From assembly GCA_041746255.1 (NCBI GenBank), contig JBGTHM010000053.1, positions 32,001-96,000 on the forward strand: a stretch of DNA of 64,000 bases. Reading direction: 5' to 3'. The notes beneath the pieces were generated by a model. The model saw nothing but the letters and a program-made list of their open reading frames with translations. It did no database searches and was not told the origin of the DNA. Source of the stretch: Fibrobacteria bacterium (GTDB lineage: Bacteria; Fibrobacterota; Fibrobacteria; UBA11236). Below, piece after piece: positions 30,395-46,100 of this stretch. The position numbers and the translations under genes were made by a program. Position 1 is the first letter of the stretch. The number at the start of each line of letters is the position of its first letter.

Positions 30395-31354
30395 TTATTT
30401 GATTTTCGCCAATTCTTCGGTAGCTACCTTGGCCGTGACCGGAAGATAACCGTCTTTGATCACCACCTTCTGGCCTTCTTTGCTGAAAACGAATTTGACG
30501 AACTCGGTGGTCAAATCGTCCAAAGGCTTGCGGGGATCCTTGAGGATATAAACGAACAGGTAACGCGCCAGCGGATAGCTCCCATCGAGAACGTTGGCAT
30601 AGCTCGCATCCACGAATTTTTCTCCCGGTTCCACCGAAACGGGAAGCGGCTTGACGCCGGAGGTCAAGTAGCCGATGCCGCTATAGCCGATGGCGTATTT
30701 GTCCACGCCGATGGAGCTGACCACCGAAGAGGAGCCCGGCTGCTCTTTCACTTGATCCTTGAAATCGCCTTTGTTCAGCGCGACATCCTTGAAAAAACCG
30801 TAGGTTCCCGAGGCGGAATTACGTCCATAGAGTTGGAAGGCTTTTCCGGCATAATCGCCGGTCAAGCCGAGCTTTCCCCAGGTGTCTATGCTTTCGGGGT
30901 TGCCTCGTTTGCGGGTTTTGGACATGACGGCATCCACTTCTTTCAAAGAGATTCCGGCGAGGGGGTTGTCTTTGTGGACGAAAACGGCCAAGGCATCCAG
31001 GGAGGTACGCAATTCGGTTGGTGCATAACCGTATTTGCTTTTGATTTTTTCGATTTCGCTGCGTTTCATATCGCGGCTCATGGGTCCTAATTGGGCGGTG
31101 CCCGCGATGAGGGCCGGCGGGGCGGTGCTCGAACCCTTGCCTTCAACCTGCACGGTGACACCGGGGTGAAATTTGCGGAATTCTTCCGCCCAGAGGGTCA
31201 TCAGGTTATTCATGGTGTCTGAGCCGATACTATTCAGATTACCGGCCACGCTTTTGGTCTTTTTATAGGAGGGAAGTTCGGCGTCGACTTGCAAGGGCTG
31301 GGCGATAAGCGCCGAATTGAGGCCCAGGGTGAGCAAAATGAGTGATTTGCGCAT
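30395..31354 (-). CDS. pstS: Phosphate-binding periplasmic protein
   Basis: GSDTM, EGKGSST, GRNSASGT, YPLARYL. Confidence 0.95.
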   Translation of the reverse strand: MRKSLILLTLGLNSALIAQPLQVDAELPSYKKTKSVAGNLNSIGSDTMNNLMTLWAEEFRKFHPGVTVQVEGKGSSTAPPALIAGTAQLGPMSRDMKRSEIEKIKSKYGYAPTELRTSLDALAVFVHKDNPLAGISLKEVDAVMSKTRKRGNPESIDTWGKLGLTGDYAGKAFQLYGRNSASGTYGFFKDVALNKGDFKDQVKEQPGSSSVVSSIGVDKYAIGYSGIGYLTSGVKPLPVSVEPGEKFVDASYANVLDGSYPLARYLFVYILKDPRKPLDDLTTEFVKFVFSKEGQKVVIKDGYLPVTAKVATEELAKIK

Positions 31355-31401
31355 AGAATTCCTTTCCGATTTAAAATCCGGTTAGTCCCGGTTTTCGGGA
31401 A

Positions 31402-31435
31402 AAAATACACGCCCTGCGTGACAATCCCATGACAG
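31402..31435 (-). promoter_or_regulatory. Pho box with -10 element upstream of pstS
   Basis: Minus strand CTGTCAT-GGGA-TTGTCAC (31435-31418), then 10 bp and TATTTT: the canonical PhoB promoter geometry. Confidence 0.85.
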
Positions 31436-31590
31436 CCCCGCGAAAGTAAACACCTCCGGCGTTCTTTGCAATTGGTGCAGTGGAATAATAGGGGAAGAAA
31501 TGCCGATTTTCTGTTATTTTGGAGAATAAGCGTAAATCAATCGGCAACCCTGTCCGGATACCGAAAGGTTTGGATGGATGAAAAAGGGAA

Positions 31591-33129
31591 ATGGGCGTTT
31601 GCTTGCATAATCACGAGCGCTATATCGAGAAAAGGGAAATCGGCAGCGGCGCCACGGCCCGGGTTTTCCAGGCGGACGATGTGAAGTTGCGCCGAGAGGT
31701 CGCCCTTAAAAAGATCCACCCGCATTTGCTGCGTGAAGAGGCCATCCGGGAACGGTTTCTCGGAGAAGCTCGATCCATAGCCCGCCTGGTGCATGAAAAT
31801 ATCGTCGGTATCTATGATGTGGACGATTCCGAAGCTTTCCTGGTGATGGAATTGGTGGAAGGCTGCGACTTGGATTCCCTGCTGACAGGGGGTCGGCCGC
31901 TCCCACCTTTGCTTACTCTGGAAATCGCCCGGCAATTGTTCGCAGGCTTGTCGGCCGCGCATGCAAGCGGCATCACCCACCGCGACATCAAGCCCGCACA
32001 CCTGATGATCGATGCCCGGGGATGCCTTAAGATCACGGATTTCGGCATTGCCCACCTTTTGGACCGGCAGACCTTAACTTCGGATGGCCAATTTTTAGGC
32101 ACGCCCCGCTATTGCTCGCCGGAAATGGTGCAAGGCGGAAAAACCCAGACCCGGAGCGATGTATTCTCGGCGGGATGTCTACTCTACCATTGCGCTACGG
32201 GCCGCTCCCCATTCGAGGGAGAAAACCCGCATCAAACCCTGCGTCAGGTTTGTGAAACCGATCCCGAGAGGCCGGGTAATTTGCAACCTATGCTTCCCCC
32301 TTTTCTGGAGGAATTGATTCTCACCTGTCTTCGCAAGCTTCCGGAAGAACGGCCGGGCGCGGCAGAGCTGCAGGCCAGTATCGAAGCCTTCGCCGTGGAG
32401 TGGCGTCTGCAATTGGGCAAAGCCCGGTTGGCCGGGTATTTGCAAAGCCCGGAGGCCTATGCCCTAGAGGAGAAGGCGCAGTTGGGCGAATTGTTTCTCC
32501 GGGAAGGTCGGGCGCTGCTGGAGAAAGGAAAGAGGGTTGCTGCGGAGAGAAGTTTCCATCGCGCCGCCCTATGTGGGATGACCGCGGTCGCATCCCCGGG
32601 CCCTGTGTCACGCAAATTTTCCCGCGCCCCCCTCTTGGTTTTAGCCGCCGGTATCGTGATGGCCAGCGGACTTATCACTGGGTTCTATATGAAGCATTCC
32701 CGCTCGCAACCCCAGCCCATCGCTTCGGAGGCGCTTGAACCCGAAATCGGTGCTACGGTTTCTACTCCCGTCACCCAAGTCATGCCGGACTCGGTAATCC
32801 CACATAGGCCCCATCGCAATGAGGCGAATCCTGCTCAAGTCACTCCGGTTTCCGGGAAAAAACTCACGGTTAAAACCCTCCCGCCAACCTCTGCGGCACC
32901 CGCCACTTCTTCCGGCGGCTTGCAAGTGCGTTCGCGCCCCCCCTTCGCCCAGGTTTTTCTGGGAGACCGGAAAATCGGCGACACCCCTTTTGACCGCGTC
33001 CAGTCTTTGCCGGCCGGCGAATATGAATTAAGGCTGGAGAAGGAAGGCTGCGAAGTGGTAAGACGTAACATCCGTATTACTCCCGCGGAAACCCTGTTTC
33101 TGGCCGTGGATTTACCTCGCTCCCATTGA
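31591..33129 (+). CDS. Hanks-type Ser/Thr protein kinase with TM helix and C-terminal PEGA domain
   Basis: IGSGATARV, VALKK, HRDIKPAH, DFG, GTPRYCSPE; TM LLVLAAGIVMASGLITGF; PEGA LQVRSRPPFAQVFLG..GDTP..GEYELRLEKEG. Confidence 0.9.
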   Translation: MGVCLHNHERYIEKREIGSGATARVFQADDVKLRREVALKKIHPHLLREEAIRERFLGEARSIARLVHENIVGIYDVDDSEAFLVMELVEGCDLDSLLTGGRPLPPLLTLEIARQLFAGLSAAHASGITHRDIKPAHLMIDARGCLKITDFGIAHLLDRQTLTSDGQFLGTPRYCSPEMVQGGKTQTRSDVFSAGCLLYHCATGRSPFEGENPHQTLRQVCETDPERPGNLQPMLPPFLEELILTCLRKLPEERPGAAELQASIEAFAVEWRLQLGKARLAGYLQSPEAYALEEKAQLGELFLREGRALLEKGKRVAAERSFHRAALCGMTAVASPGPVSRKFSRAPLLVLAAGIVMASGLITGFYMKHSRSQPQPIASEALEPEIGATVSTPVTQVMPDSVIPHRPHRNEANPAQVTPVSGKKLTVKTLPPTSAAPATSSGGLQVRSRPPFAQVFLGDRKIGDTPFDRVQSLPAGEYELRLEKEGCEVVRRNIRITPAETLFLAVDLPRSH

Positions 33130-33905
33130 TGGGTGATTATCTTTACGTTATGCGCTTTCTATGGATCCTGCTTTCCGGTTTCACCTGCGTCGTGGCGGCT
33201 CCGAACCTGAACGCCTTGCGCCTCCATTTTGAATGGGCGGAATACGACAGCCTGTTGGTGAAAGCTCCCCCGCTCGCGGATGATCCCTATTTGGCGCCGG
33301 AAGAGAAGGCGAAATTATGGAATTATTTGGGGGTGGCGCGGTTTATGCGCGGCGATAGCCTCTTGGCCGTTAAGAATTACCACCAAGCCCTGGAATGGTC
33401 GGACGAGGTGCGCCTCGATCGGTTTTTCGTCAGCCCCGAGGCCCACGCCCATTATTTACGCGCGCTGGAAACTTATATAAGCCGGGAGGAAAAAAGTGAA
33501 GCGAATGCTTCCATTCCGACCCTGGCCCCTTCTCCTTCCGCTCCGAAAAATGCATGGATAGCCTCGCCTTTTCTCGCCGGATTCTGTTTCGCGGCTTCGG
33601 CGGGATTGGGCTATTTCTCTTATGCCGCCTACCAACGCGGCGAAGACATGATGCCCGAATGGAGAACTACCCAGGACAGGGAACGGTGGAACGAGTTGCT
33701 GGCAGCAGTGCGCAGGGAAGATACCCGGGCGTTGGTCTTTGGCGGAGCTTCGGTGCTGGCCTTCGGAGCGGGAAGTTATTGGGTGATACGCCGCATGTTT
33801 AGGGAAAAACCGGAGGCCTCCCAGGTTTCCTTAGGCCCGGAGATTAAATCCTCATTTCGCTTATATGGCGCGGGTACCGGCTGGGAATACACTTTCGTTT
33901 TTTAA
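33129..33905 (+). CDS. Exported TPR-like protein with two C-terminal hydrophobic segments
   Basis: Signal peptide; LWNYLGVARFMRGD..AVKNYHQAL TPR; LD.FFVSP; two Gly/Ala-rich helices. TGATG coupling to the kinase gene. Confidence 0.7.
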   Translation: MGDYLYVMRFLWILLSGFTCVVAAPNLNALRLHFEWAEYDSLLVKAPPLADDPYLAPEEKAKLWNYLGVARFMRGDSLLAVKNYHQALEWSDEVRLDRFFVSPEAHAHYLRALETYISREEKSEANASIPTLAPSPSAPKNAWIASPFLAGFCFAASAGLGYFSYAAYQRGEDMMPEWRTTQDRERWNELLAAVRREDTRALVFGGASVLAFGAGSYWVIRRMFREKPEASQVSLGPEIKSSFRLYGAGTGWEYTFVF

Positions 33906-33925
33906 CTTTTCGCGCGAACTTCAGC

Positions 33926-33966
33926 GTCCCAAAATTGAGATGGGTTTTCCTAGCGCCGGGATTCCC
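33926..33966 (+). promoter_or_regulatory. Tandem palindromic sites, putative enhancer (UAS)
   Basis: GTCCCA-N4-TGAGAT and TTCCTA-N4-CGGGAT, 21 bp apart; 27/41 ungapped identity to 40088-40128. Confidence 0.6.
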
Positions 33967-34042
33967 CTGGGCTTTTCTCCGCCTGATCTTTTCGTACCTC
34001 CTTTTTTTTGCAAAAATCCCCCGATTCCACCTCGCACCTTTT

Positions 34043-34058
34043 CGGCTTGGCTTTTGCT
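34043..34058 (+). promoter_or_regulatory. Putative sigma54 -24/-12 promoter
   Basis: CGGCTTGGCTTTTGCT (GG-N10-GC, TTGC) about 50 bp upstream of the VIT-domain gene. Confidence 0.6.
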
Positions 34059-34107
34059 TTTCCCTTGGACAAATCGCGGCGATTCGCCGTAACCCAAGGA
34101 GAAAGAC

Positions 34108-35742
34108 ATGAAAAAGTTCCTATTCCTCATTGCCGTAATCGGCTTGACGTTTTCACAAGCGGAGTTGTCCTGGAAAACCACGCATGGGACCTATGGCGAG
34201 GGGGAGGTGCGACTGCAATCGAATAAAATCAAGGTTACGGTGTATCCGGGATATTTGGATGTCGAGGAAGAGGCGGAAATCCAGACCTTGGGCGAAACGC
34301 CTTGGGGAGGCGATGCCAACAGCTTGGAAATATTCGGGGATTTTTCCCTTCCGAAGGGAGCGGCCGTGGTGAGTCTGTTGCTCTGGAATGGCCAGGATTT
34401 ACTCAAGGCGCGGCTCAAGGATAGGGCGCTGGCCAGGCAGCAATATGAGAAAGTGGTCGACCGCAATACGCCTCCGCCTCCCAGGCCATGGGATCCGGCG
34501 CTGGTGGAATTCTTGGGAGGGGGGCGCTATGGACTTTCCATTTATCCGGTGCGTCAGGGCTTCTCCCGGAAAATCCGTCTGCGCTACCATGTGGCGGCCG
34601 AAGTAACGACCCGGGGAGTGGAGCTACCCTTTTCAACGGTCATTGCGCGGGCGATACCCGGTGATCGGAATGCGGTGATTGAGACTTCTTTTCACCCAGG
34701 GTCGCGAAAAGAGGGCTTCACTTTGGGAACTGCGACGGGACTGGTAAAGCCACTTGCCCTGCCCGCTACCTACCTGTTCGCGACCCCTCAGGATTTACGC
34801 ATCCTAAGTCAAAATAACGCGGTGGGAATCACCACTTCCTTTGCGGAAGGGGGTTACCAAGGCCATTACATTTCGTTGCATGCGCCGCTTCCGGCCGCGG
34901 TTAAAAATTCTTTGCAAAGTTTCGCTTCGCTCAAGCAAAAGCCGTCGTTGACGGCGGAAATCCGCAAAGGCAATGAAACCATGCATATCGACATGACCTG
35001 TAGCGGGAAGCTGGATCTCTGCCGGGGACTGGCTTTCACAGGCAAAGCATCCGCGCCTTTTTCGGCTCGGGTGGATTGGGTGGTTCATTCAGGGGGTTCG
35101 GAAAAGCTTCGCCACACGCAGGAGTTTCCCATGGCGGATCAGGCTAAGGACTCGATATTGGCGATACTCTGGGCCGCGAATCCCGCCTCCTATACCGAGA
35201 AAACCGAACTTCAGCGCGGCACTCGCTATGGATTTGTTGACGCTACCGCCAGTCTTTTGGCTTTGGAAGAAGATGTGATGAACGCGGAAGATACCCGGCG
35301 CTATTGGGATGCGGGTGTGCCCCGGCTGACTGATGCGGAAATCTTCCCCAGCGATACCACTACGGGGTTTTCCGCCAATGAGATCCTGTTCCAATTCAAT
35401 CCCAATCAAAATCCGAATCCAAACCCTAACCAGCCCTGGGTTACATCGCTGGCAGCTCCCGAGGTTCGCTCGGAGAAGGGTATTTCGGGGCTGCTCCGTG
35501 GGGGTAATGCCTTGCAATTCCACCTGCCGGAAAACTGGCGCTCCGAATCGACCCGGGAAGCGCTGATCACGGTGGTTCTCTTTGGCCTGGACGGCCAGGA
35601 GTTGGGAAGATGGACTTTGCAAAACCCCAGTGAAGGCTTACTGGAATTGCGAATACAGGGACAAGTTATGAAGCCCGGTCTTTATCTGTTACGGGTGGAA
35701 GGCGCCTCCTTGCGCACCAGCCATAGGTTGAAATTGATGTAA
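34108..35742 (+). CDS. Secreted VIT-domain protein with T9SS-like CTD
   Basis: AAGGAG SD; signal peptide; FSLPKGAAVVSLLLWNG..ARQQYEKVV..DPALVEF..IYPV..RKIRLRY VIT pattern; NPNQNPNPNPNQP linker; GLDGQ..KPGLYLLRV tail. Confidence 0.75.
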   Translation: MKKFLFLIAVIGLTFSQAELSWKTTHGTYGEGEVRLQSNKIKVTVYPGYLDVEEEAEIQTLGETPWGGDANSLEIFGDFSLPKGAAVVSLLLWNGQDLLKARLKDRALARQQYEKVVDRNTPPPPRPWDPALVEFLGGGRYGLSIYPVRQGFSRKIRLRYHVAAEVTTRGVELPFSTVIARAIPGDRNAVIETSFHPGSRKEGFTLGTATGLVKPLALPATYLFATPQDLRILSQNNAVGITTSFAEGGYQGHYISLHAPLPAAVKNSLQSFASLKQKPSLTAEIRKGNETMHIDMTCSGKLDLCRGLAFTGKASAPFSARVDWVVHSGGSEKLRHTQEFPMADQAKDSILAILWAANPASYTEKTELQRGTRYGFVDATASLLALEEDVMNAEDTRRYWDAGVPRLTDAEIFPSDTTTGFSANEILFQFNPNQNPNPNPNQPWVTSLAAPEVRSEKGISGLLRGGNALQFHLPENWRSESTREALITVVLFGLDGQELGRWTLQNPSEGLLELRIQGQVMKPGLYLLRVEGASLRTSHRLKLM

Positions 35743-35750
35743 ACCTCAAA

Positions 35751-35776
35751 AAAGGAGGGGGTAATCCCCCTCCTTT
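35751..35776 (+). terminator. Rho-independent terminator-like hairpin
   Basis: AAAGGAGGGGG-TAAT-CCCCCTCCTTT directly after the stop codon. Confidence 0.8.
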
Positions 35777-35848
35777 GCCAGCCAAAAATTAGAGAATGGT
35801 TTAGATTTCAAATGAGACAAGGTATTACAACCGAACCCGGCCCATTTT

Positions 35849-36922
35849 TTGCAGCGCAAGTCAAAAACATTGTCCCTTCTGGGCTACGTGTGCCTACTTA
35901 TGGGTAGCGTGGTGACTTTTTCCTGTCTGCATGAGCCGCCGCCTAAGCCGCCCCTGCCGGTGTTTCCTCCAGTCGACAGTACAAACATTTTGGATTCACT
36001 TTTCCCCGGCGGCATTATCGTTGATTTACCCTATCCGGATTCCCTGATAGGCCAATACGATTTGAAGCAAATTCAGAAAGCCGGATGGGAATGGGATCCC
36101 ACTTCCTGGCCTGGAAAATGGGGATGGGGAGAAAAGGAGCGGCTGGACCTTTATTGGGAGGGTCGCGTAACCGGACATAAATTGAGATTGGGTATATTCG
36201 AAGGATATGTATCGATAACCCGGCCCTCCGACGATTCCATCGCGGAATTTCCCTATCGGATTCATCGACGGTTCAAAAATTTCTGTCCAGCGGGCGACTC
36301 GCTTTCTGAATACTGGGGTGTGACAACCCAACCGAAGGATTTTTCCGGCGACCGGCAATTGTTGGCGCAAGTAGTTGATGCCGCGACTCCGATTGAGAAC
36401 CAGGTACGGGGGATTCGCAGCCGCTTTGCTTTCGTGGGCGATTATGTTTTCGATATTCACTTGCGGCTGCCTGCGACCGTAGCTTCCGGTTATACCGTGG
36501 CTCTGTTCCTATCGGAGGTGGAAGCGCCTCTCTTTCAAAATATTCTGACTGGTAAGGGAGAGCAGAAAGGGTTTCAGGTATTTTCGGAGGGGGCTGGGAT
36601 TTTCTTTAATGCCGAAAAGGGCCAGAACCCCGTAAAGGCTTTTGGGCCGGGCGATCGTTTTAGTGGACTCGGAATACGACTTGCGAATGACGTGACATTC
36701 CGGTTTATCCGAAAAGAAGGTCGTATCTCATTTGCCTCCAAAGGGCCCACCGAATCTGATTTCACCGAAATTCAGGGATGGTTTTACCCGGATTTATCTG
36801 CCCTCGATGCCGGGCTTTTTCTGCATATGATGGTAGGCGTATTCGAGGCTCCGACCCGCACACTCAACGTGGAATGGGATCGGTTTGTCATCCACGAGGG
36901 AGAAGTGGAGATGCGCCCATGA
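35849..36922 (+). CDS. Hypothetical lipoprotein with Pro-rich linker and beta-rich domain
   Basis: Basic N-region, hydrophobic stretch, TFSC lipobox-like site, EPPPKPPLP. TTG start uncertain. Confidence 0.65.
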   Translation: MQRKSKTLSLLGYVCLLMGSVVTFSCLHEPPPKPPLPVFPPVDSTNILDSLFPGGIIVDLPYPDSLIGQYDLKQIQKAGWEWDPTSWPGKWGWGEKERLDLYWEGRVTGHKLRLGIFEGYVSITRPSDDSIAEFPYRIHRRFKNFCPAGDSLSEYWGVTTQPKDFSGDRQLLAQVVDAATPIENQVRGIRSRFAFVGDYVFDIHLRLPATVASGYTVALFLSEVEAPLFQNILTGKGEQKGFQVFSEGAGIFFNAEKGQNPVKAFGPGDRFSGLGIRLANDVTFRFIRKEGRISFASKGPTESDFTEIQGWFYPDLSALDAGLFLHMMVGVFEAPTRTLNVEWDRFVIHEGEVEMRP

Positions 36923-38697
36923 TGGAATTACGCCTTATCTCCGCAAGTGAAACCCGGACTTTTCCGTTGCAAGGGAGTTTGGTCCTGGTGGGCGCCGCCC
37001 CGGATGCCGATATCCATCTCGACGAGGCGGGAATGGCCGAGGTGGCGCTGCGGATGGAAAAATCAGCACAGGGCTTCCGCGTAACCAATGTGGAAAACGA
37101 CTCGCGTATCCGTCTGAACGGAGCCCGGTTTCAACAGGCGGAATTGGGCCTGGGCGATAGATTGGAAATCGGATCGCAAATAGGCGTTCTGGATCATGGG
37201 CAAGGGAAAAACGTTTCTGTCCCGAGTAAGAACGTGGAGGCCGGATTAACCCAGGATAACCGACTGCGGGAAATTCTGGAAGCTTTCGCCGCGTTGGTTT
37301 CGAGTGAAACCGATTTGCAAAAAGTTGCCGAAGGGGCGGTGGAGACCATGGCCAAGGCCTTTCGCGCCACCGAAGCCTTTCTTTTCGCTTTGGATAGGGA
37401 GGGTAATCCCACCGTAAGCGCAGCAACGGGCCCGGCCTCGGCGCAAGAACGTTTTAGCGACACTTTGGTTCAAGATGTTTTGCAATCCGGAAAAGGCAGG
37501 GCGATTCCCCATGCCCTGACGGATCCGCAATATGGGTCGGCGCAAAGTATTGTGGAATTGAAATTACAAACCGTGTTGGCCGCACCGATTCGCCTGGCGG
37601 GTCGTGTCGTAGGATTGATTTATCTGGGATGCCGCAAAGGCGACGTGTCCTATTCCGAGACGGATCTCGCCGTACTGGAAACCTATTCGGTGGTATTGGG
37701 CATGTTGCTCCATAGCGTCGATTATATTTCTCAGCAAAGGGAGGCCATTCGGCGGCTGGCGGGTGCGGATACGGAAGATGGAATCGTAACCCAGTCGCCG
37801 GTTATGCAGAATTTATTGGAGCAGCTTCGCAATGTTGCTCCCTCCGAAATCACGGTGTTGATTCAGGGAGAAACCGGTACGGGCAAGGAAGTGCTTTCCG
37901 AATATTTGCATCGCAAAAGCGACCGAGCAAAAAAATCTTTCGTGGCGGTCAATTGCAGCAGTTTGCGCGGCGAATTGCTCGAAAGCGAATTGTTCGGATA
38001 TAAAAAAGGAGCTTTCACGGGAGCGCAATCCGATCGGCGGGGCCTCTTTCAGGCGGCGCATCAGGGAACTTTGCTGCTCGACGAAATCGGTGAAATGGAT
38101 TTGAATCTGCAGGCGAAATTATTGCGGGTACTGGAGTCGGGCCGAGTCCGCCCGGTCGGTGCGGTGCAGGAAGAGGAAGTCGACGTGCGAGTGGTGGCGG
38201 CGACCCACCGGGATTTACAGAAAATGGTCAGCGAGGGGGTATTCCGCCAAGACCTTTACTTCCGTATCGCCCAGGTTACGCTGGTGATTCCACCTTTGCG
38301 TGAGCGTGCGGAAGACATCCTTTTGCTGTCGCACCATTTCCTGGAAAAATTCCGCGCCAAATATCCCCATAAAGACGTACGCGATTTCCATCCGGATGCC
38401 TGGGGCGCTTTGATGGCGCATGAATGGCCGGGCAATGTACGCGAATTGGCCAACGTAGTGCACCGCGCGGTACTTTCGGCTTCCTCCGCTTTGGTGACCT
38501 TGGAGGCCGGCGCCTTTTCTCCCCGCTTTGCGGAAATGGAAGAGGCGACCTCCCGCTTCCAGAAATCCTATTTGGAGCGGGCTTTGGTCTTATCCAAAAA
38601 CAACAAGGAGGATGCGGCGCGATTATTGGGTATGAGCCGCAGCACATTCTTCCGGTACCTCTCGCAATTGGGAATACAGACGGGAGCGCAGTCATGA
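36919..38697 (+). CDS. Sigma54-dependent activator (FHA-like, GAF, AAA+, Fis HTH)
   Basis: GETGTGKE, ESELFG, GAFTGA, LLDEIGEM, FRQDLYFRI, WPGNVREL, AARLLGMSRSTFFR; GAF LAAPIRLAGRVVGLIY. ATGA overlap gives start 36919. Confidence 0.92.
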   Translation: MMELRLISASETRTFPLQGSLVLVGAAPDADIHLDEAGMAEVALRMEKSAQGFRVTNVENDSRIRLNGARFQQAELGLGDRLEIGSQIGVLDHGQGKNVSVPSKNVEAGLTQDNRLREILEAFAALVSSETDLQKVAEGAVETMAKAFRATEAFLFALDREGNPTVSAATGPASAQERFSDTLVQDVLQSGKGRAIPHALTDPQYGSAQSIVELKLQTVLAAPIRLAGRVVGLIYLGCRKGDVSYSETDLAVLETYSVVLGMLLHSVDYISQQREAIRRLAGADTEDGIVTQSPVMQNLLEQLRNVAPSEITVLIQGETGTGKEVLSEYLHRKSDRAKKSFVAVNCSSLRGELLESELFGYKKGAFTGAQSDRRGLFQAAHQGTLLLDEIGEMDLNLQAKLLRVLESGRVRPVGAVQEEEVDVRVVAATHRDLQKMVSEGVFRQDLYFRIAQVTLVIPPLRERAEDILLLSHHFLEKFRAKYPHKDVRDFHPDAWGALMAHEWPGNVRELANVVHRAVLSASSALVTLEAGAFSPRFAEMEEATSRFQKSYLERALVLSKNNKEDAARLLGMSRSTFFRYLSQLGIQTGAQS

Positions 38698-40046
38698 AAA
38701 CGCGCCATATGTTCACTTTGCTGCGGATGTGGCTATTGGCTGGGATGGTTTCCGCCGCAGGCCTTTTTGCGGCGCCGATGCATCTGGGTTCGCGCGATAT
38801 TTATGCAGGGGGCAAGACGCATGTCGAGGCGCCCATTCTCCTAACCAATTTTGACCAGCAGGTGGTGAAGCGGGTGGATTTCACTTTGCGCTACCCTACC
38901 GCTGCTTTAGGCTCCCCAGCTCTTCCCGCTGCTTCCATCATGGAGGGTTGGACGGCGAATATCGTTTCCTCCGGCGCGGGATGGGTGCGAATTTCGGCGG
39001 AAAACGGCGGGGAAGGGACGGAAGTATCCTGGTTACATCTGCTCAACCTGCGTTTCCCAACGACGGGTACTTCTACGCAGTCGCTCGAATTCGAGGAAAT
39101 CCGGATAAACGGGATTATCCTGGCTGGTCTTGAAACCACCCCCTTTCGTATCCGGAATACTTCGCTTCCAGCCAAGGGCGATATCAATGGGGATGGCCGT
39201 ATCGATATTGCCGATGTCGATGCGGCATTGGAGGCGTTGACTGCGGGAACGGCTAACTCCACTTTTCCGGACTTCAACCAAAGTGGCTCCTTCGATGCTC
39301 ATGACGCGGGGTTGTTGCACCGCCATGTGGTGGGATTACTGCCAGGCTTGTTGAGCGCAGCTGCCGGTAATACCTACCCTCCGGCATTGGTACCGAAACT
39401 GACTATGCAGGCTCCGAAAGCATTGGGAAACAATATCTATTCCTACGTTGTCCGGGGCGAAAATTTGCGGGGGATCATTTCCGCGGATCTGGTGTTTCAA
39501 ATAGATGGGAATATCATTGCAAATATCAACTCTACCCGTTTCGCGCAAACCTCGGTTATCAGCAAGGAAGCGACCCTAGGGGGCCGGAGGCATATCCGGT
39601 TCTCGACTCCCCATGCCGTGGATAGTTCGCCACTGGATTGGCTGGAAATCATTGCCGTTCACAAACCGGGCCAAACGGGACAGGGGATTTCCATTCCGAA
39701 CTACTATGAGGTTAAAACCCAGTCTGCAAGTTCACCCGCAATGAACGCTGTCGGCATTACCTATGGTCTGCAAATATTTAATAATCCCCCAACGACTCGG
39801 GTCCACAATCCTAACGCTCCTCATGTTCCATTCACCAACTTGACCCTGGATAACTATTTATGTGAGTCGTATCGATGGGGTGAGGCCTATCCCTATTTAA
39901 TTTATAGCATGCAGGGCCGCCTCCTCCGGCGCGGTTTCCTCACGAGTGGCACCCCTGCCGTGCTCCCTGTGTTGCCCCCTGGAAAATACCAGCTCCGGCT
40001 GAATGGGCCCGAAGTCCTGAATTTCTCTCTCGACGTTCAGAAATAG
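38694..40046 (+). CDS. Secreted cohesin-like/dockerin/cohesin-like protein with T9SS-like CTD
   Basis: Signal peptide; VDFTLRYP..LLNLRF cohesin-like pattern; GDINGDGRIDIADV and PDFNQSGSFDAHDA dockerin EF-hand pair; YSMQGRLL..LPPGKYQLRL tail. ATGA coupling to the activator gene. Confidence 0.72.
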   Translation: MKTRHMFTLLRMWLLAGMVSAAGLFAAPMHLGSRDIYAGGKTHVEAPILLTNFDQQVVKRVDFTLRYPTAALGSPALPAASIMEGWTANIVSSGAGWVRISAENGGEGTEVSWLHLLNLRFPTTGTSTQSLEFEEIRINGIILAGLETTPFRIRNTSLPAKGDINGDGRIDIADVDAALEALTAGTANSTFPDFNQSGSFDAHDAGLLHRHVVGLLPGLLSAAAGNTYPPALVPKLTMQAPKALGNNIYSYVVRGENLRGIISADLVFQIDGNIIANINSTRFAQTSVISKEATLGGRRHIRFSTPHAVDSSPLDWLEIIAVHKPGQTGQGISIPNYYEVKTQSASSPAMNAVGITYGLQIFNNPPTTRVHNPNAPHVPFTNLTLDNYLCESYRWGEAYPYLIYSMQGRLLRRGFLTSGTPAVLPVLPPGKYQLRLNGPEVLNFSLDVQK

Positions 40047-40087
40047 TCCACCCCACTAATCCATACCACCCACTCTACATCAAAGCC

Positions 40088-40128
40088 ATCCCAACTTTGG
40101 GACAGGCCTTCCCATTTTCCGGATTCCC
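40088..40128 (+). promoter_or_regulatory. Tandem palindromic sites, putative enhancer (UAS)
   Basis: ATCCCA-N4-TGGGAC and TTCCCA-N4-CCGGAT, 21 bp apart. Confidence 0.6.
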
Positions 40129-40216
40129 GCCTAAGGTTATCCTTTTCCTCAAACCCTGCTTCCACCGGATTCGCAGGAATCACCCAATAATATTCCCATC
40201 CCTCACTTCAAACCTT

Positions 40217-40232
40217 TGGCCCGTACTTTGCA
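40217..40232 (+). promoter_or_regulatory. Putative sigma54 -24/-12 promoter
   Basis: TGGCCCGTACTTTGCA, one mismatch from TGGCACG-N4-TTGCW. Confidence 0.75.
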
Positions 40233-40244
40233 GTAGCACTAGGT

Positions 40245-40955
40245 ATGAATACAACCACTTCCTCCCGTCCCGCACGTTGGTTGGCGCATGAACTGGGCAA
40301 TTACCTGGCGGCCTTGCGCACGAATCTGAATCTGCTGTATGGTCGCGGTGAGGATATTCCCTCCCGCGATCGTCCTCGGTGGGAGCGTGTGCTCAACTCA
40401 TGCGAGAAGCTGGAGGCCATGACGAAGGATATGCTGCAATTGGGAAAAGAAGCCGATACGGATTCGCAGCCCCCTCTCCAATCCGGCTTCCGCACAGTGG
40501 ATTTGCCTACCCTGGTTAAACGCATTTGCCTCCGTGAGTTCTCTGATGCATTCGGGTCTATCCTCTTCTCGAGGGCCGGCGCATCCGGTAGACAGGTATT
40601 TGGAAATGAAACCTTGCTGGAGGGAGCTTTCTCCAACCTGTTCCGCAATGCCTTCGCGGCGGGAGCGACACGCATCGAGGTGGATTTTCGTTTGCTGGCA
40701 GGTAAGCTGGCGGTTTCCGTCGAGGATAACGGACATGGCTGTGGAGAAGAAATTCTCGATAAAATATTCGAAGACGATTTCACCACAAAAAAAGATGGCG
40801 CCGGGTTGGGAATGGGATTGGTACGCGAAATCGTGCATGCCCATGGGGGTGAGATAACAGCCTTTTCCAAAAACGTCCTGGGAAACGCTTCCGGGCTTAT
40901 CATCCTTTTGTCTTTTCCAATTAAGGGTGAAGGCTCCAAGCCAATAAAGCCTTGA
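40245..40955 (+). CDS. Histidine kinase without a sensor domain (HisKA + HATPase)
   Basis: LAHELGN H-box at residue 15; NLFRNA, EDNGHG, FTTK, GAGLGMG. Confidence 0.85.
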   Translation: MNTTTSSRPARWLAHELGNYLAALRTNLNLLYGRGEDIPSRDRPRWERVLNSCEKLEAMTKDMLQLGKEADTDSQPPLQSGFRTVDLPTLVKRICLREFSDAFGSILFSRAGASGRQVFGNETLLEGAFSNLFRNAFAAGATRIEVDFRLLAGKLAVSVEDNGHGCGEEILDKIFEDDFTTKKDGAGLGMGLVREIVHAHGGEITAFSKNVLGNASGLIILLSFPIKGEGSKPIKP

Positions 40956-41334
40956 GTTCGGAAGCCTGCGAAGCCTCTCCCTCCAACGGCTCCAGGCAAA
41001 GGTGCCGTCCTCCTGACCGACGCCAGTAGGCCGAATTGGGCAAATCTCCTTCGCGTTTATGGAAGATGGCATGCAATAAATCGAAATCCTTTTCGCCTTC
41101 GTGGGCCTGGGCGATTTCGTGGGCGGGTTCGCAGCGATCGTTCCACAGTAGGGCGATGGCGAGGACCAATTCTTGCAGCCGGGAATCCCAGTTCGCTTGG
41201 CGGCCCAGCAAGGATATTTTTTCGCGTAGGGCTTTCTCGGTGAATGCCTCCGGCCGGGACGACAAATCCGGCGAAGGTGCGCCCGAGGCGAATAATTCCC
41301 AGCCAACCCGGTTCAGGTCTACGGACTTTTCCAT
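40921..41334 (-). CDS. Conserved hypothetical protein
   Basis: AHEIAQ..LHAIFHKREGD..NSAYW pattern; co-oriented downstream of the phoR-like gene. Confidence 0.65.
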   Translation of the reverse strand: MEKSVDLNRVGWELFASGAPSPDLSSRPEAFTEKALREKISLLGRQANWDSRLQELVLAIALLWNDRCEPAHEIAQAHEGEKDFDLLHAIFHKREGDLPNSAYWRRSGGRHLCLEPLEGEASQASELKALLAWSLHP

Positions 41335-41346
41335 TACTGGGCGACC

Positions 41347-43110
41347 TCAGGTTTTCGGTGACACCAAAACATCGGGAGGGAACTCTACCAGGAAACGGCT
41401 GCCTTTGCCCACGGTGCTTTCCGCGCGCACATTGATGCCGTACCGGTGCGCCGCATGCTTTACGATGGAAAGGCCAAGCCCCGTGCCCTCGAACTTGGGC
41501 CGGGCCGCGTCGGCGCGGTAAAAACGTTCGAAAATACGGTTGAGAATCTCGGAGGACATCCCCTTGCCGGTGTCCTCCACCACCAATACCGCACCGTCTT
41601 TTTCCGTCAGGGTAATATTCACGCGTCCGCCACGCTCATTGTATTTGATGGCGTTGCTGATCAGATTATTGATTATGAGATCCAGATCATGCTGTTCCAT
41701 GCATACCCGCAGGTTTTTCGGAACGCGACAGTCGATACTCACCTCCATCTCTTCCTGGGCGTGCCGGTGCATGTGTAATGCGGCTTGCAGGCAGTCGTTC
41801 AGGTTCAATTCCTGAGGGTCGAGAGGGACATGACTGTATTCCAATTGGGAAAGATGCAGAAGGTTGAGTATCAACTTTTCCAGGCGCAAGGCGTTGACAT
41901 GGATTTTTTCCACGAAGGAGCGGCGAACCCGGTCGTTGTCCAGGGCGCCGTCGAGCAGGGTTTCCGAATAGCCTTTTATCGAAGACAGCGGGGTTTTGAG
42001 CTCGTGCGAGGCATTGGCCACGAATTCGGTTTTCATGCGATCGAGGTTGCGGAATTCGCCGATGTCGGTAAGAGTGATGAGAAGTTCGCCGATGTCGCGG
42101 GGCCCCAGCGGTCTTATGTGACAAGAGATATCATGATCCGAAAAGGGGCCTTTATCGAAGCGGACGGAAGCAGGGTTTCCGGTTTCCCTCACGCGGAGGA
42201 CGGCATCGAGCAAAGGTTTCACCTGCACTTGTTCATGCAGCGCTTTGCCGTGCAAGGATCTTTCCGCCTCCAACCCCAGCAAATGGCGGAAGGCCGGATT
42301 CGCCACGCGTATGCGACCTTGATTGTTCACTATCACGATGCCCTCATGCAATTGGTTGAGGATGAGGAGCAGATTGTCTTTTTCCAATTCCAAATCGTGG
42401 TGATTGCGTTGCAAACCACGGGCGTACAAATTCCAAGATTCGCCCAGGAAGGCGGTCTCGGAAAATCCTTCCTCAGACTTCGGTTCCAAAGGTTTGCGGT
42501 TTCCCGGCGGAACCATGCCTTGCAGCGAAACCAATATTCTGCGATTCATCCATCCACCGGCGAGGAAGGAAATTCCCAATACCGCAAAAGGAAACGCGAA
42601 GAGCAAGGCGACTCCGTAGGTTCGATAGGAGTTCAATAAAGCCTGTTCGTTGGCGAGACGGACATAGTGTCCGGATTTGAGGCGTTGGGCCACATAGAAC
42701 ATCTGCCGTCCCAGCGTATGAGAAAACCGTTGCGATACGCCCCAGCCTCGGTTGCGCGCCATTTCCAATTCAGGGCGATGGAGATGATTGGCTGTTTCCC
42801 CCAGGCCGATGGCGGGAATGTGGGAATCGGCAAGCACCCCTCCCGCTTCGTCGATGAGACTGACCCGATGGCCGCTTACGGCGGAAATCGCCTTGGCGAA
42901 AGAATCGGCAACGGCGGTATGGAAGAGCAAGCCGGGGTTCTCTTCCAATTCACCGCGTATCCACTGCAAATGACTATTAAGGTCGCCTTCGAGGGAGGCG
43001 GATAACCGCGCCTGTCCCAAACGAAAAAGACCGATCATGAAAATGAACAGCACCGCTCCGAATAGAAGGTAGGAGATGAGAAGGCTATGTCGGAGGGAGC
43101 GCCAAGGCAT
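41347..43110 (-). CDS. phoR: PhoR-like sensor histidine kinase
   Basis: Two TM helices, NHLHRPE periplasmic motif, PAS, EFVANASHELKTPL, RIFERFYRAD, GTGLGLSIVKH. Confidence 0.8.
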   Translation of the reverse strand: MPWRSLRHSLLISYLLFGAVLFIFMIGLFRLGQARLSASLEGDLNSHLQWIRGELEENPGLLFHTAVADSFAKAISAVSGHRVSLIDEAGGVLADSHIPAIGLGETANHLHRPELEMARNRGWGVSQRFSHTLGRQMFYVAQRLKSGHYVRLANEQALLNSYRTYGVALLFAFPFAVLGISFLAGGWMNRRILVSLQGMVPPGNRKPLEPKSEEGFSETAFLGESWNLYARGLQRNHHDLELEKDNLLLILNQLHEGIVIVNNQGRIRVANPAFRHLLGLEAERSLHGKALHEQVQVKPLLDAVLRVRETGNPASVRFDKGPFSDHDISCHIRPLGPRDIGELLITLTDIGEFRNLDRMKTEFVANASHELKTPLSSIKGYSETLLDGALDNDRVRRSFVEKIHVNALRLEKLILNLLHLSQLEYSHVPLDPQELNLNDCLQAALHMHRHAQEEMEVSIDCRVPKNLRVCMEQHDLDLIINNLISNAIKYNERGGRVNITLTEKDGAVLVVEDTGKGMSSEILNRIFERFYRADAARPKFEGTGLGLSIVKHAAHRYGINVRAESTVGKGSRFLVEFPPDVLVSPKT

Positions 43111-43167: not shown

Positions 43168-46100
43168 CTAAAATTCCCGCAAAGGCAGGGATTGACTCCA
43201 GGCGGTGTTGGGGCCGCGAGCCTCCAACAATAGGAAGGCGGCTTGGGATGCACGTCGGGAGGGTGCCAAGGTGGAAAGGCTAAGCCGGTAATTCCCTGCC
43301 GGCCACTCCGCTTTCCCAATCCGGTTGAGCCGCACTCCATTCGCGTTATAGAGCGAGATTTCCAATCGCGTGGCATGAGGCAGGGAAAAGTGAAGCAGGG
43401 TTTCGGCGTTGTTGTGGGAAAGGTGGGCGGAGAATTTATCCGGTGAGTCATTGCGGTTTAGCCAGTGACCGGCCATCAATGCCGAAGGCCCTGCCCAGAT
43501 TTCGAGGGTATCACTGGCAACCGGCGGCAGCGCTATCGCAAAAGCGGTATCGATGCGGCGGGCTGGACCGGTGGAGGAGACCATCCATACTTGCCAATCG
43601 AAAGGCAGGTCCTTGGTTAAAATGGACAGGCTGTCCGGGGCCTCGCTCCGACTGCGTTGGGAAATTACCCGCCAACGCAGGATGCTCTCTCCCTCGAAAC
43701 GGACCACGTCGGTTCCCAACTTACGGCCCTCCCGGTGCGACCAAATGGCCCCGGGAATTTGAGCGGTATTGGCCGGAGGGAAAAATTCGTCTTCAATGGA
43801 TAATCCCGTGCCCGCGCCGGGCGTCGCGCCCAGCAGGAGAAAATTTCCTCGTTTCAGCAAAAGGTGCATCCGGTTTCCCGAGCCTGTCTTGCGCATGGCT
43901 ATGGGCTTGGCGGAGAAGGGCTTTTCCAACAAGGTAACGGAGGCTTCTTTGTTGTAGCAATACACGAAATAGCCGCGCCAGGGCTCAAGCGAATCGCTGG
44001 GGAAATAGTTCCCGCTATTCGCGTCGTAAATCCAAGGGTTTTTGATGGGGTTGTAGAAGTACGTTTCCAGATCCTGGCGTGATCCCGGCCAGTAAAGGGT
44101 TTTTTCCCGGGTATTCGAAACGAGGTTCCAGCCTTCCCGCAGATTGATCTTGACGCTGCCGTTTAGGGTGGTGGATGCGGAAGTGACTTCGTGGAAAAGG
44201 GCGCTTTTGAGGCTCGAGGGGCTACTCAACCAAAAAGCCTGGTGGGCAGGCAGCGTGTCTTCGTCCCGAAGATTACGATATGCCTGCTTGGCCGCGTCCC
44301 AGGCCGTTCCTTTGAGCGAGGCGACCCCGTTGTTTTTCCGCAGTCCGCCGAGAGTCAGGGGCGGATCGAGCGCGATGGGCACACTTACCAAATCCCAGGG
44401 CGCGCCCCCGTTCACGCCCACTTTCCAGGAGGAGGGGCTTCGGTAATTTGTAAGCCGTCGTTTCGGGAGAAAGGTGGAGTTGGAGTCGGTCGGAAACAGG
44501 GAAAGCTGCCTACCGTCGCCGACCTGGATATTTATCCGCACCGGGTCGGATGCGTTGTCCCCGTTTTCAACCAGCAGAACCAAGTCCTTGCCGGTTGTCC
44601 ATTCGAGATATTGCCATTCGGGCGATGCTGCGTCCGACCTTTTTATCGCGACCTTAAGATTCGAGGTATTGTCTTGTAAGGTGAATTCCAGTTCGGTATG
44701 ACCGTCCGCGTTCACTTGTTCTTTTTCGAGCTTGATAAGCGGAGCGAGCGTATCGCGGGCGCGGAAGTAGACTCCGGACCCGGGGAGCGTCACGGTGGCT
44801 GCGGAGGTGAGATTGAGGGTGCGATTTCCGTCCGCTACCCAGTACAGTTCCCCTTCATTGGAACCGGTGTAATGGAATCGCGCCAGGGAGGAATCGTTCA
44901 CGCTGGGCAAGGTCAGTCGGAATGCGCATTCCGGCGCCGCGAAGCCCGGATAAGTCTTCAAGCTGTCTTCCGGCAGGGCTTTAAACTGGGCGGTTGATCC
45001 GGCCGACTCCCAGGTAACCCGGCAATGGTTGCTTAAGCGGAATTCTCCGCCGGGAATCAAGCTTACGGGGCCGGTAGGGGCGAAACGATAATTTGTCGAT
45101 ATTATCGGACTGGCGCGGCGGAGATCGCCGTCACCGATAATGGCAACGGCGCGGAGAGTGGTTTCCTGCGAGATACGCAGCGGTGCTTGATAGATTATGC
45201 CCGAATTCATATCCGGAGCAGTTCCATTCAAAGTATATCGGATGACGGCATTGGAATCCGCTGCGTGCAAAACCACTTCGGCTTCCGATGCGAAGAGCCC
45301 GCCGCCCGGTGAGACGACGGGCGGGGCGGGAATGCGGGCGTAGGCCTGGTCCATGATGGCGCTCGGCTCCACCCCTGGAGCATATGCGATGGCGCGAAGC
45401 CGCACACCCTGTTTAAGCACAAGCCTTTTTCCATAAAGCGCAGAAGCTTGGGTAGGCAGGGAACCGTCCAGGGTGTAATGCACGGAGACATCTGAAGCCG
45501 TAGCCGAGAGTGTCACTGCCAGCGAGTCCGTGAAATCCCGGCTTAAAGGCGAGGCTGTGGGTGGAACCAGACGCCGGGTGTAGAGGGCTTCCACCGTATC
45601 GCTGGTTTCCGCGTCGCGCGTACTGAAAGCCCAGATGCGCGTCGTAGTCCGCAGGATAATCGGGCTTTCGTAAAAACGCACCAGACCATCGCTTTCCAAT
45701 TTGTAATAGAGAGCCGCATTAGGCGCCGCGCCGCTCAAGGTAACTATGATGAGACTATCGGTGAATTCCGTGGCGCCCGGAGTGAAAATGGGCTTGGGCA
45801 GGGTTCCCGGCGAAGGAGAATTACGGATATAGAAGGCCTTGCCTATGACGCTGGTGTCGCCCTTTAGCACCGCGAAGGACTGGAGGTCGGTGGTGTTTCG
45901 CAACACGATAGGTTGGGAGTAGGGTTCCGGGTCGCCGTTGTCGCGCATGAAAAAAATGTCGGCCTGGAGGACTGCGACGCTTAAGGAAACCGTCACGCTG
46001 TCGTCGAAGTGCGATCCGGAAGGCGTGGCTGTAGGCGCGGGAAAAGAAACGAGAAGACGGGCGGCGGCGCTTTGCGCTTGACCGGAGGAGTTTCCCACGC

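Follow-up and report, generated by a model that had tools for sequence, protein, structure and literature searches.

What do a membrane Ser/Thr kinase, an exported tetratricopeptide repeat (TPR) protein, a lipoprotein and a sigma54 activator do together in one gene block, and what would such a set of proteins control? This question is raised by a locus in a 64,000-nt stretch of Fibrobacteria bacterium DNA (the window; all coordinates are positions in it unless a contig is named), whose genome, G000, measures 4.59 Mb (given also as 4.6 Mb). A preliminary description of the sequence had seen seven co-oriented genes here, and all seven plus-strand open reading frames (ORFs) are indeed present between 31591 and 40955. 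Four of them are core genes, encoding a Ser/Thr kinase with a PEGA domain, the TPR protein, the lipoprotein and a sigma54 activator with FHA and GAF domains. The lipoprotein gene had been seen before but was left out of the module as it was then named, so that its place in the core was missed. We propose, with moderate confidence, that the core works as a trans-envelope signalling module, turning on a sigma54 regulon whose products are secreted.

A four-gene core in Fibrobacterota

Using a profile of the FHA-GAF part of the activator (E≤1e-25), we detected the family in 38 of 296 Fibrobacterota genomes, among them G000 and the unpublished G021. The largest family searched with that profile, with 151 genomes, gave no match. 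The sources label the homologues as Fibrobacterota, Fibrobacteria, Chitinispirillaceae or Chitinivibrionales. We mapped the activator loci of all 37 positive genomes besides G000, and this neighbourhood search bore out the kinase-TPR-activator core of the preliminary description: the genes are co-located across the phylum, while the passenger genes vary. The kinase (or its PEGA tail), the TPR protein and the activator lie on one contig in 30/38 genomes (29/37 without G021), among them G290 and G295, where the TPR match is weak; in the remaining eight (G001, G015, G027, G033, G038, G128, G131 and G141) a contig ends within a few kb. Four gene orders occur: kinase-TPR-lipoprotein-activator, kinase-activator-TPR-lipoprotein, kinase-TPR-activator-lipoprotein, and kinase-TPR-(lipoprotein) facing a convergent activator. 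The window's ConA-type lipoprotein family is found in 26 of the 38, an Ig-repeat lipoprotein stands in its place in 5 more, and 7 have neither. Within the module, a cohesin-dockerin gene is present in 19 of the 38 genomes and a VIT-type gene in 4. A scan of genome contigs with a GAF alignment gave 5 loci, each equal in length to a contig already in the set, and a scan of metagenome contigs gave none among 129 candidates; neither figure limits the range of the family.

The small histidine kinase at the end of the block does not belong to this conserved set, contrary to what had been assumed at first. As described earlier it is sensorless, with no sensor region or hydrophobic segment (HATPase_c is above and HisKA below the Pfam cut-off), but an adjacent copy occurs only in G000 and G001. 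We rejected it as a core gene: among 61 genomes 10 matched at 1e-25, and the matches outside G000 and G001 are longer, ordinary kinases.

The position of the block between pst and phoR, also noted before, reflects an insertion. In G003, which has no module, pstS and phoR adjoin directly; the block was thus inserted into a pst-phoR region older than itself. In G004, G007 and G009 the two genes lie 13-28 kb apart on one contig. We rejected a link to phosphate regulation, since this is an insertion site and no fetched locus but that of G001 has pstS as a neighbour.

Two observations concern the assemblies themselves. Loci L091 and L093 are labelled Bifidobacteriales although they hold a Fibrobacterota module, and are probably mislabelled. 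The G001 assembly holds two versions of the locus (L024 and L028), one with the VIT gene and the other with most of it deleted and with the promoter and lipoprotein kept.

Enhancers, sigma54 promoters and the predicted regulon

The genes at 34108 (VIT protein) and 40245 (histidine kinase) had been predicted as targets of the activator, and each is preceded by a putative sigma54 site and by a tandem enhancer common to both. The enhancer is a palindrome, RTCYCR-N4-YGRGAY, followed 21 bp on by a weaker copy. From its start to the GG of the sigma54 site is 118 bp at the VIT gene, where that GG lies 64 bp before the ATG, and 130 bp at the histidine-kinase gene. The ATG of the latter falls about 2-3 bases after the expected sigma54 start, which suggests a (nearly) leaderless mRNA; the leader in G001 is longer.

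Only 14 strict palindromes occur in the 4.59 Mb, and two of them are the window enhancers. With a matrix built from 13 module-adjacent sites of other classes, the window enhancers rank 3rd (VIT) and 4th (histidine kinase) in the genome. Five of the top six matrix sites have a sigma54-like site within 45-150 bp, compared with 0.55 of 28 random stretches (about 2%). The tandem pattern, written without a sigma54 term, was found in 25/38 activator-positive genomes and in 23/258 others; among positives that were not used to write it, the count was 11/23. Fifty-one of the 76 tandem sites found in fetched loci lie close to a sigma54-like site, at a distance of mostly 86-89 bp; this share is inflated because part of the loci were chosen by a pattern containing sigma54.

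The genes behind these enhancers mostly encode exported proteins: LamG-cohesin-dockerin, VIT and VIT-vWA proteins, astacin-tectonin lipoproteins, a C25 peptidase and a BsuPI-domain protein. VIT genes unlinked to the module carry enhancer and promoter in G000, G033, G037, G038, G134, G139 and G140. On this comparative evidence we are rather sure that the activator would act through the enhancer on these targets.

Several further loci of this kind deserve record. At G000:C34:67837 a high-scoring enhancer-like site with a sigma54-like site precedes a 405-aa gene. A VIT paralogue at G000:C37:21559-23307 (L174), which would also join the regulon, lies in a polysaccharide-synthesis region; of the elements before it, one enhancer half is perfect and the sigma54 site is strong. 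At G000:C86:18613-19412, a tandem enhancer and a sigma54-like site precede a gene for a secreted 188-aa protein (L171:4614-5177), a candidate regulon member that begins with C-T-C when mature and matches TIMP weakly (E 0.002, below cut-off). G130 and G131 (L131-L150) have 25 and 30 strand matches, or about 13-16 enhancer sites each, which lie 86-92 bp from sigma54 sites and precede diverse secreted proteins. In L044 and L159 (G009:C20), an array of astacin-tectonin lipoprotein genes near the kinase has several tandem enhancers about 1.1 kb apart.

The two secreted proteins of the window show what the outputs may look like. The VIT domain of the first scores 21.9 bits against a Pfam cut-off of 26.5, and is above cut-off in a paralogue and an orthologue. 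Its beta-sandwich model (pLDDT 84.6) has ITIH1 as best Foldseek match (E 1.3e-6; TM 0.27, a weak match). No vWA domain was found in it, either as a Pfam match or as an alpha/beta domain of that size in the model; longer VIT-vWA proteins are part of the relatives' regulon. The second had been called a cohesin-dockerin protein. The dockerin half of that name holds (Dockerin_1 above cut-off), and there is a further beta-rich domain; the window protein itself has no Cohesin match, though its homologues do, with a single cohesin beside a single dockerin in one chain. Its gene, here coupled to that of the activator, has no separate enhancer; many relatives have both an enhancer and a sigma54 site directly for this gene. 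Both proteins end in C-terminal tails, that of the VIT protein resembling a sorting domain of the type 9 secretion system (T9SS), which has been described for the Fibrobacteres-Chlorobi-Bacteroidetes (FCB) superphylum. The T9SS-type tail family TIGR04183 has 70 matches in G000, including the C37 VIT paralogue and excluding the two window outputs; several homologues of the outputs match PF18962.

From surface cue to activator

The lipoprotein has no match to any Pfam family. Its structure model (pLDDT 84.9) combines a small beta-stalk with a jelly-roll of the ConA/legume-lectin/GH16 type; VIA matches it best to the GH16 enzyme 5dzg (Z 17.4, rmsd 2.8, 176 residues aligned), the legume-lectin domain 5zbt gives Z 15.4, and Foldseek also returns a jelly-roll. 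The motif E-x-D-x-(x)-E, which we take to be the GH16 catalytic motif, is absent from all 25 lipoprotein sequences, so this protein more likely binds than catalyses. One lipoprotein has a weak CBM96 match, and an Atlas search with the window's lipoprotein gave only scores under 0.9. We regard the lipoprotein as the best sensor candidate of the module, and judging from the modelled fold alone its cue would most likely be a surface glycan.

The same wiring could instead respond to envelope stress or proteolytic attack (for example in predation or competition), with a structural lipoprotein and, as output, a coat in which scaffold proteins and proteins resembling protease inhibitors would protect the cell. 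The VIT proteins (inter-alpha-trypsin-inhibitor-like), the weakly TIMP-like G000 gene and the BsuPI proteinase-inhibitor domain would suit such a coat, the regulon also holds the C25 peptidase and the astacin-tectonin lipoproteins, and a scan of 22 further genes with an enhancer before them named no family of glycoside hydrolases (9 of these genes matched no family at all). The analogous TagQR-PpkA system senses membrane damage (PMC10482370). On the other hand, the sensor candidate has a lectin-type fold and one lipoprotein the CBM96 match, many outputs are of the LamG or tectonin lectin type, short VIT proteins like that of the window lack a vWA domain, and an inhibitor role for them is itself putative. 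We think that this alternative is possible but doubtful.

Under the reading that we prefer, a glycan-responsive module, the signal would next reach the TPR protein. Its TPR match is below the Pfam cut-off (E 0.0014), and it consists of a signal peptide, a near-invariant W-[GA]-E-Y motif, a linker and Gly/Ala-rich C-terminal helices with a terminal Phe. These helices did not reach the hydropathy threshold; we infer that they anchor the protein at the outer membrane. A word-based homologue search returned only the protein itself and a same-genus copy (2 of 667 candidates), and a profile search returned 264 proteins at E≤1e-10. Its Atlas look-alikes are Myxococcota TPR clusters (feature score 0.94, 199/256 features).

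Complex modelling favours the pairing of the PEGA domain with the TPR protein, which the preliminary description had put forward for modelling: the score was 0.66, compared with 0.01 for the best of 3 controls, above a mark that 116 of 157 solved pairs and 2 of 215 mismatched ones attain (a rough guide, with user-supplied alignments). Three runs agreed in 100% of contacts, with a partner pLDDT of 90. In the model, E35-A37 and F99-P103 of the TPR protein face R447-F452 and T465-P466 of the PEGA domain, and these residues are the most conserved columns in the alignments of both families. The TPR protein is thus predicted to be the receptor of the kinase PEGA domain.

Pfam finds Pkinase and PEGA in the kinase, both above cut-off. 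A Hanks-type domain (aa 11-261) is followed by a conserved cytoplasmic helical extension (about aa 270-330), one transmembrane helix (aa 343-367), a Pro-rich linker and the periplasmic PEGA domain (aa 442-510). PASTA repeats were not found, NF033483 scoring 273 bits against a cut-off of 450 and over the kinase part only; the PEGA domain is there instead. The motifs of an active kinase are present (Gly loop, VAIK Lys, alphaC Glu, HRDxKPxN, DFG and APE), save that the window has His for the catalytic-loop Asn (HRDIKPAH); all 31 orthologues in which the loop is present carry Asn. Could the kinase be dead, and the module decaying in this genome? Besides the His, the loss of most of the VIT gene in one of the two G001 versions would agree with decay. 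However, base 31999, C in the window, is A in all contigs covering it from sequencing runs X1 (which may be the source sample) and X2 (of the same study), giving the Asn codon, and one 5.5-kb X1 contig differs from the window at this base alone. The His is therefore probably an assembly error. Moreover, no ORF is interrupted, and the two enhancers and their promoters show no damage. We rejected the dead kinase on the orthologues and the X1 and X2 contigs, and consider decay extremely unlikely.

The activator has an FHA-like (Yop-YscD_cpl), a GAF, a Sigma54_activat and an HTH_8 domain, all above the Pfam cut-off; its top NCBIfam matches, NorR, NifA and FhlA, are all below theirs. Walker A, GAFTGA, Walker B and arginine-finger motifs are intact in the AAA+ domain, the Fis-type HTH (SRSTFFRYL) has a recognition helix nearly invariant in the family, and rpoN is present in G000.

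How would the kinase reach it? Classically, the kinase would autophosphorylate and the FHA domain dock on the phosphothreonine, a route proposed for myxobacterial FHA activators and implied in the first account of the locus. The FHA part still has the fold, with profile matches to the FHA domains of FhaA and GarA, and the kinase keeps its RD loop and activation-loop threonines. Yet of the residues that we take to bind the phosphate, G-R and S-x-x-H, the former (with its Arg) is found in 3 of the 37 activators covering the FHA part, the latter in none, and both together in none, whereas planctomycete relatives keep both. With binding residues lost family-wide, that link falls away; phospho-docking of the classical kind is unlikely, and we would give it very little weight. 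Three possibilities are then left for the kinase: it would phosphorylate the activator, touch it in a phosphate-independent manner, or have no effect on it.

The last of these possibilities leads to another explanation, in which a small molecule bound by GAF controls the activator, and kinase, TPR protein and lipoprotein form a separate device that is co-inherited or has another substrate. GAF is much better conserved than FHA and resembles the GAFs of cGMP phosphodiesterases, the FHA would not read phosphothreonine, and a third activator copy in G002 has no kinase within its 10.5-kb contig (L047). But activator and kinase have stayed together through at least four rearrangements, including the convergent orientation and direct kinase-activator overlaps, and no small-molecule synthase or transporter recurs in the gene maps examined. 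We consider this explanation improbable. As a candidate phosphosite for direct phosphorylation we rejected FSDT at position 179, in the GAF domain: S-D-[TS] is kept in 36 of the 37 sequences covering the site, a planctomycete relative has S-R-T there, and the motif may be structural. Elsewhere in G000 (C129:22023-23744; L173:7024-8745), an FHA-GAF-adenylate/guanylate cyclase with FHA above the Pfam cut-off has the same input architecture and a different output.

The chain that we favour would thus run as follows. A lectin-fold lipoprotein, or an Ig-repeat lipoprotein in one lineage, would meet the surface cue, most likely a glycan to judge by the fold; the exported TPR protein, presumably at the outer membrane, would grip the periplasmic PEGA domain, as modelled, and thereby, by analogy with PpkA, cluster and activate the kinase. 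The kinase would then activate the enhancer-binding protein by direct phosphorylation or a phosphate-independent contact, and this protein would bind the tandem palindromes about 65-130 bp upstream of sigma54 promoters, as comparative genomics indicates. VIT/ITIH-like and (LamG)-cohesin-dockerin proteins with T9SS-type tails would be the recurring outputs, and in this genus the sensorless histidine kinase would have been added as a second-tier output. The hairpin after the VIT gene is possibly a leaky terminator; read-through from the VIT promoter into the lipoprotein, activator and dockerin genes would give positive feedback.

Several points weigh against this chain. The top-ranked matrix site (G000:C95:2990) has no sigma54 site. 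The enhancer pattern is absent in 13/38 activator-positive genomes, and these genomes are kin, so that such counts are not independent trials and overstate significance. A looser pattern that we tried and rejected (one palindrome plus minimal sigma54 letters) occurs in 119/296 genomes, many without the activator, and does not discriminate. Nor do VIT genes follow a strict rule: in the activator-positive G004 and G009, and likewise in G003, G017 and G029, which lack the activator, they carry a sigma54 site but no enhancer. The ConA fold is widespread and says nothing on function. The degenerate FHA removes the obvious connection between kinase and activator, and this connection, like that between lipoprotein and TPR protein, is predicted from gene clustering.

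Table. Genes and regulatory features of the locus (window positions).
Feature	Role	Position	Strand	Basis and remarks
Ser/Thr kinase with PEGA	core	31591..33129	+	Pfam, hydropathy, alignments
Exported TPR protein	core	33129..33905 (start 33129 or 33150)	+	alignments, complex model
Putative tandem palindromic enhancer	VIT promoter	33926..33962		matrix rank 3 in genome
Putative sigma54 -24/-12 site (GG-N10-GC)	VIT promoter	34042..34058	+	pattern; similar sites precede VIT orthologues
Secreted VIT/ITIH-like protein	output	34108..35742	+	Pfam below cut-off; structure model; signal peptide judged by eye
11-bp hairpin	after VIT gene	35751..35776		T-run on minus side; only three T on plus side
Lipoprotein (Cys26)	core	35849..36922	+	structure model, fold matches
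FHA-GAF sigma54 activator	core	36919..38697	+	Pfam, motif location; likely start 36919 (592 aa)
Secreted cohesin-dockerin protein	output	38694..40046	+	Pfam, homologues; likely start 38694 (450 aa)
Second putative tandem enhancer	histidine-kinase promoter	40088..40124		matrix rank 4 in genome; also in G001 (L027)
Putative sigma54 site	histidine-kinase promoter	40216..40232	+	GG 27 bp before ATG
Sensorless histidine kinase (HisKA + HATPase)	passenger	40245..40955	+	Pfam, gene maps, hydropathy

Of three junctions that had been read as translationally coupled, two are real ATGA overlaps, lipoprotein/activator (36919-36922) and activator/dockerin protein (38694-38697). At the third, kinase and TPR protein overlap in TGATG (33127-33131), and coupling is uncertain because in the nearest relative the start codon is the one matching ATG 33150, which leaves a gap of 36 bases. 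A sigma70 scan of 31200-41500 gave no sites where 6.2 were expected; no promoter was located for either the kinase-TPR or the lipoprotein-activator unit. Beyond the block, a 137-aa minus-strand ORF of no family (40921-41334) overlaps the end of the histidine-kinase gene by 35 bases, and a 1318-aa secreted protein with Fn3-associated/CHB_HEX_C repeats is encoded upstream of phoR (43168-47124).

Relation to known systems

In Myxococcus xanthus, FHA-domain sigma54 enhancer-binding proteins were reportedly described by Jelsbak, Givskov and Kaiser in 2005, with a Ser/Thr kinase proposed as their input. The activator described here is like them in fusing an FHA-type domain to a sigma54 AAA+ domain and in its proposed kinase input. 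It differs in that its FHA is degenerate family-wide and followed by a GAF, that a dedicated TPR protein and a lipoprotein accompany the kinase, that the hosts are Fibrobacterota, and that enhancer and targets are defined by comparison. NorR, NifA and FhlA share the GAF-AAA+-HTH architecture, but have no FHA and no linked membrane kinase; they are controlled by small molecules or soluble partners, and NorR, as in the case here, has multiple upstream enhancer sites. In Bacteroidota, glycan surface signalling relies on SusC/anti-sigma/extracytoplasmic function (ECF) and hybrid two-component systems. These have the same job that we propose here, carrying a surface cue across both membranes to secreted proteins, whereas the core described here has no TonB-dependent transporter, anti-sigma factor or His-Asp relay.

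A Hanks kinase is paired with a transcription factor in EcfP-PknT of Vibrio. So it is in PknS-EcfK of Xanthomonas citri, where the transmembrane kinase is required to activate the neighbouring transcription factor; there the output is an ECF sigma factor rather than a sigma54 activator, and the part of the report available mentions no PEGA, TPR or lectin-lipoprotein input (PMC6653060). In TagQRST-PpkA-Fha1 of Pseudomonas aeruginosa, a membrane kinase acts on an FHA protein once it has been activated by an outer-membrane protein together with a partner in the periplasm; as far as the accessible text goes, that system works post-translationally (in type 6 secretion system assembly), with an ABC complex and a phosphatase, and without a sigma54 activator (PMC10482370). 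In the module gene maps examined, no ABC complex and no phosphatase turned up repeatedly.

A literature search, with most subscription papers outside its scope, gave no description of the four-gene module, the enhancer or the regulon. The parts have precedents; to these the present analysis adds how the module is distributed over the phylum, together with its enhancer, its regulon and a receptor candidate with a lectin fold. Only tentatively would we go further and see in it a distinct kind of surface signalling, in which an exchangeable lectin-like lipoprotein, an outer-membrane TPR adaptor, a PEGA kinase and a phosphorylated or phosphate-blind activator would control an inducible layer of T9SS-exported ITIH-like and cohesin-dockerin proteins through up to about 15 enhancer sites per genome.

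That Hanks kinases feed sigma54 activators is a long-standing proposal from myxobacterial work. If the chain proposed here is true, this proposal would become testable with named parts, namely the PEGA-TPR contact residues, the enhancer and the promoters. The PEGA domains of bacterial kinases would gain a binding partner, and the FHA of such activators need not read phosphothreonine. Two orphan secreted families, the VIT/ITIH-like and the single cohesin-dockerin proteins, would be placed in one inducible regulon of a phylum of mostly uncultured polymer degraders.

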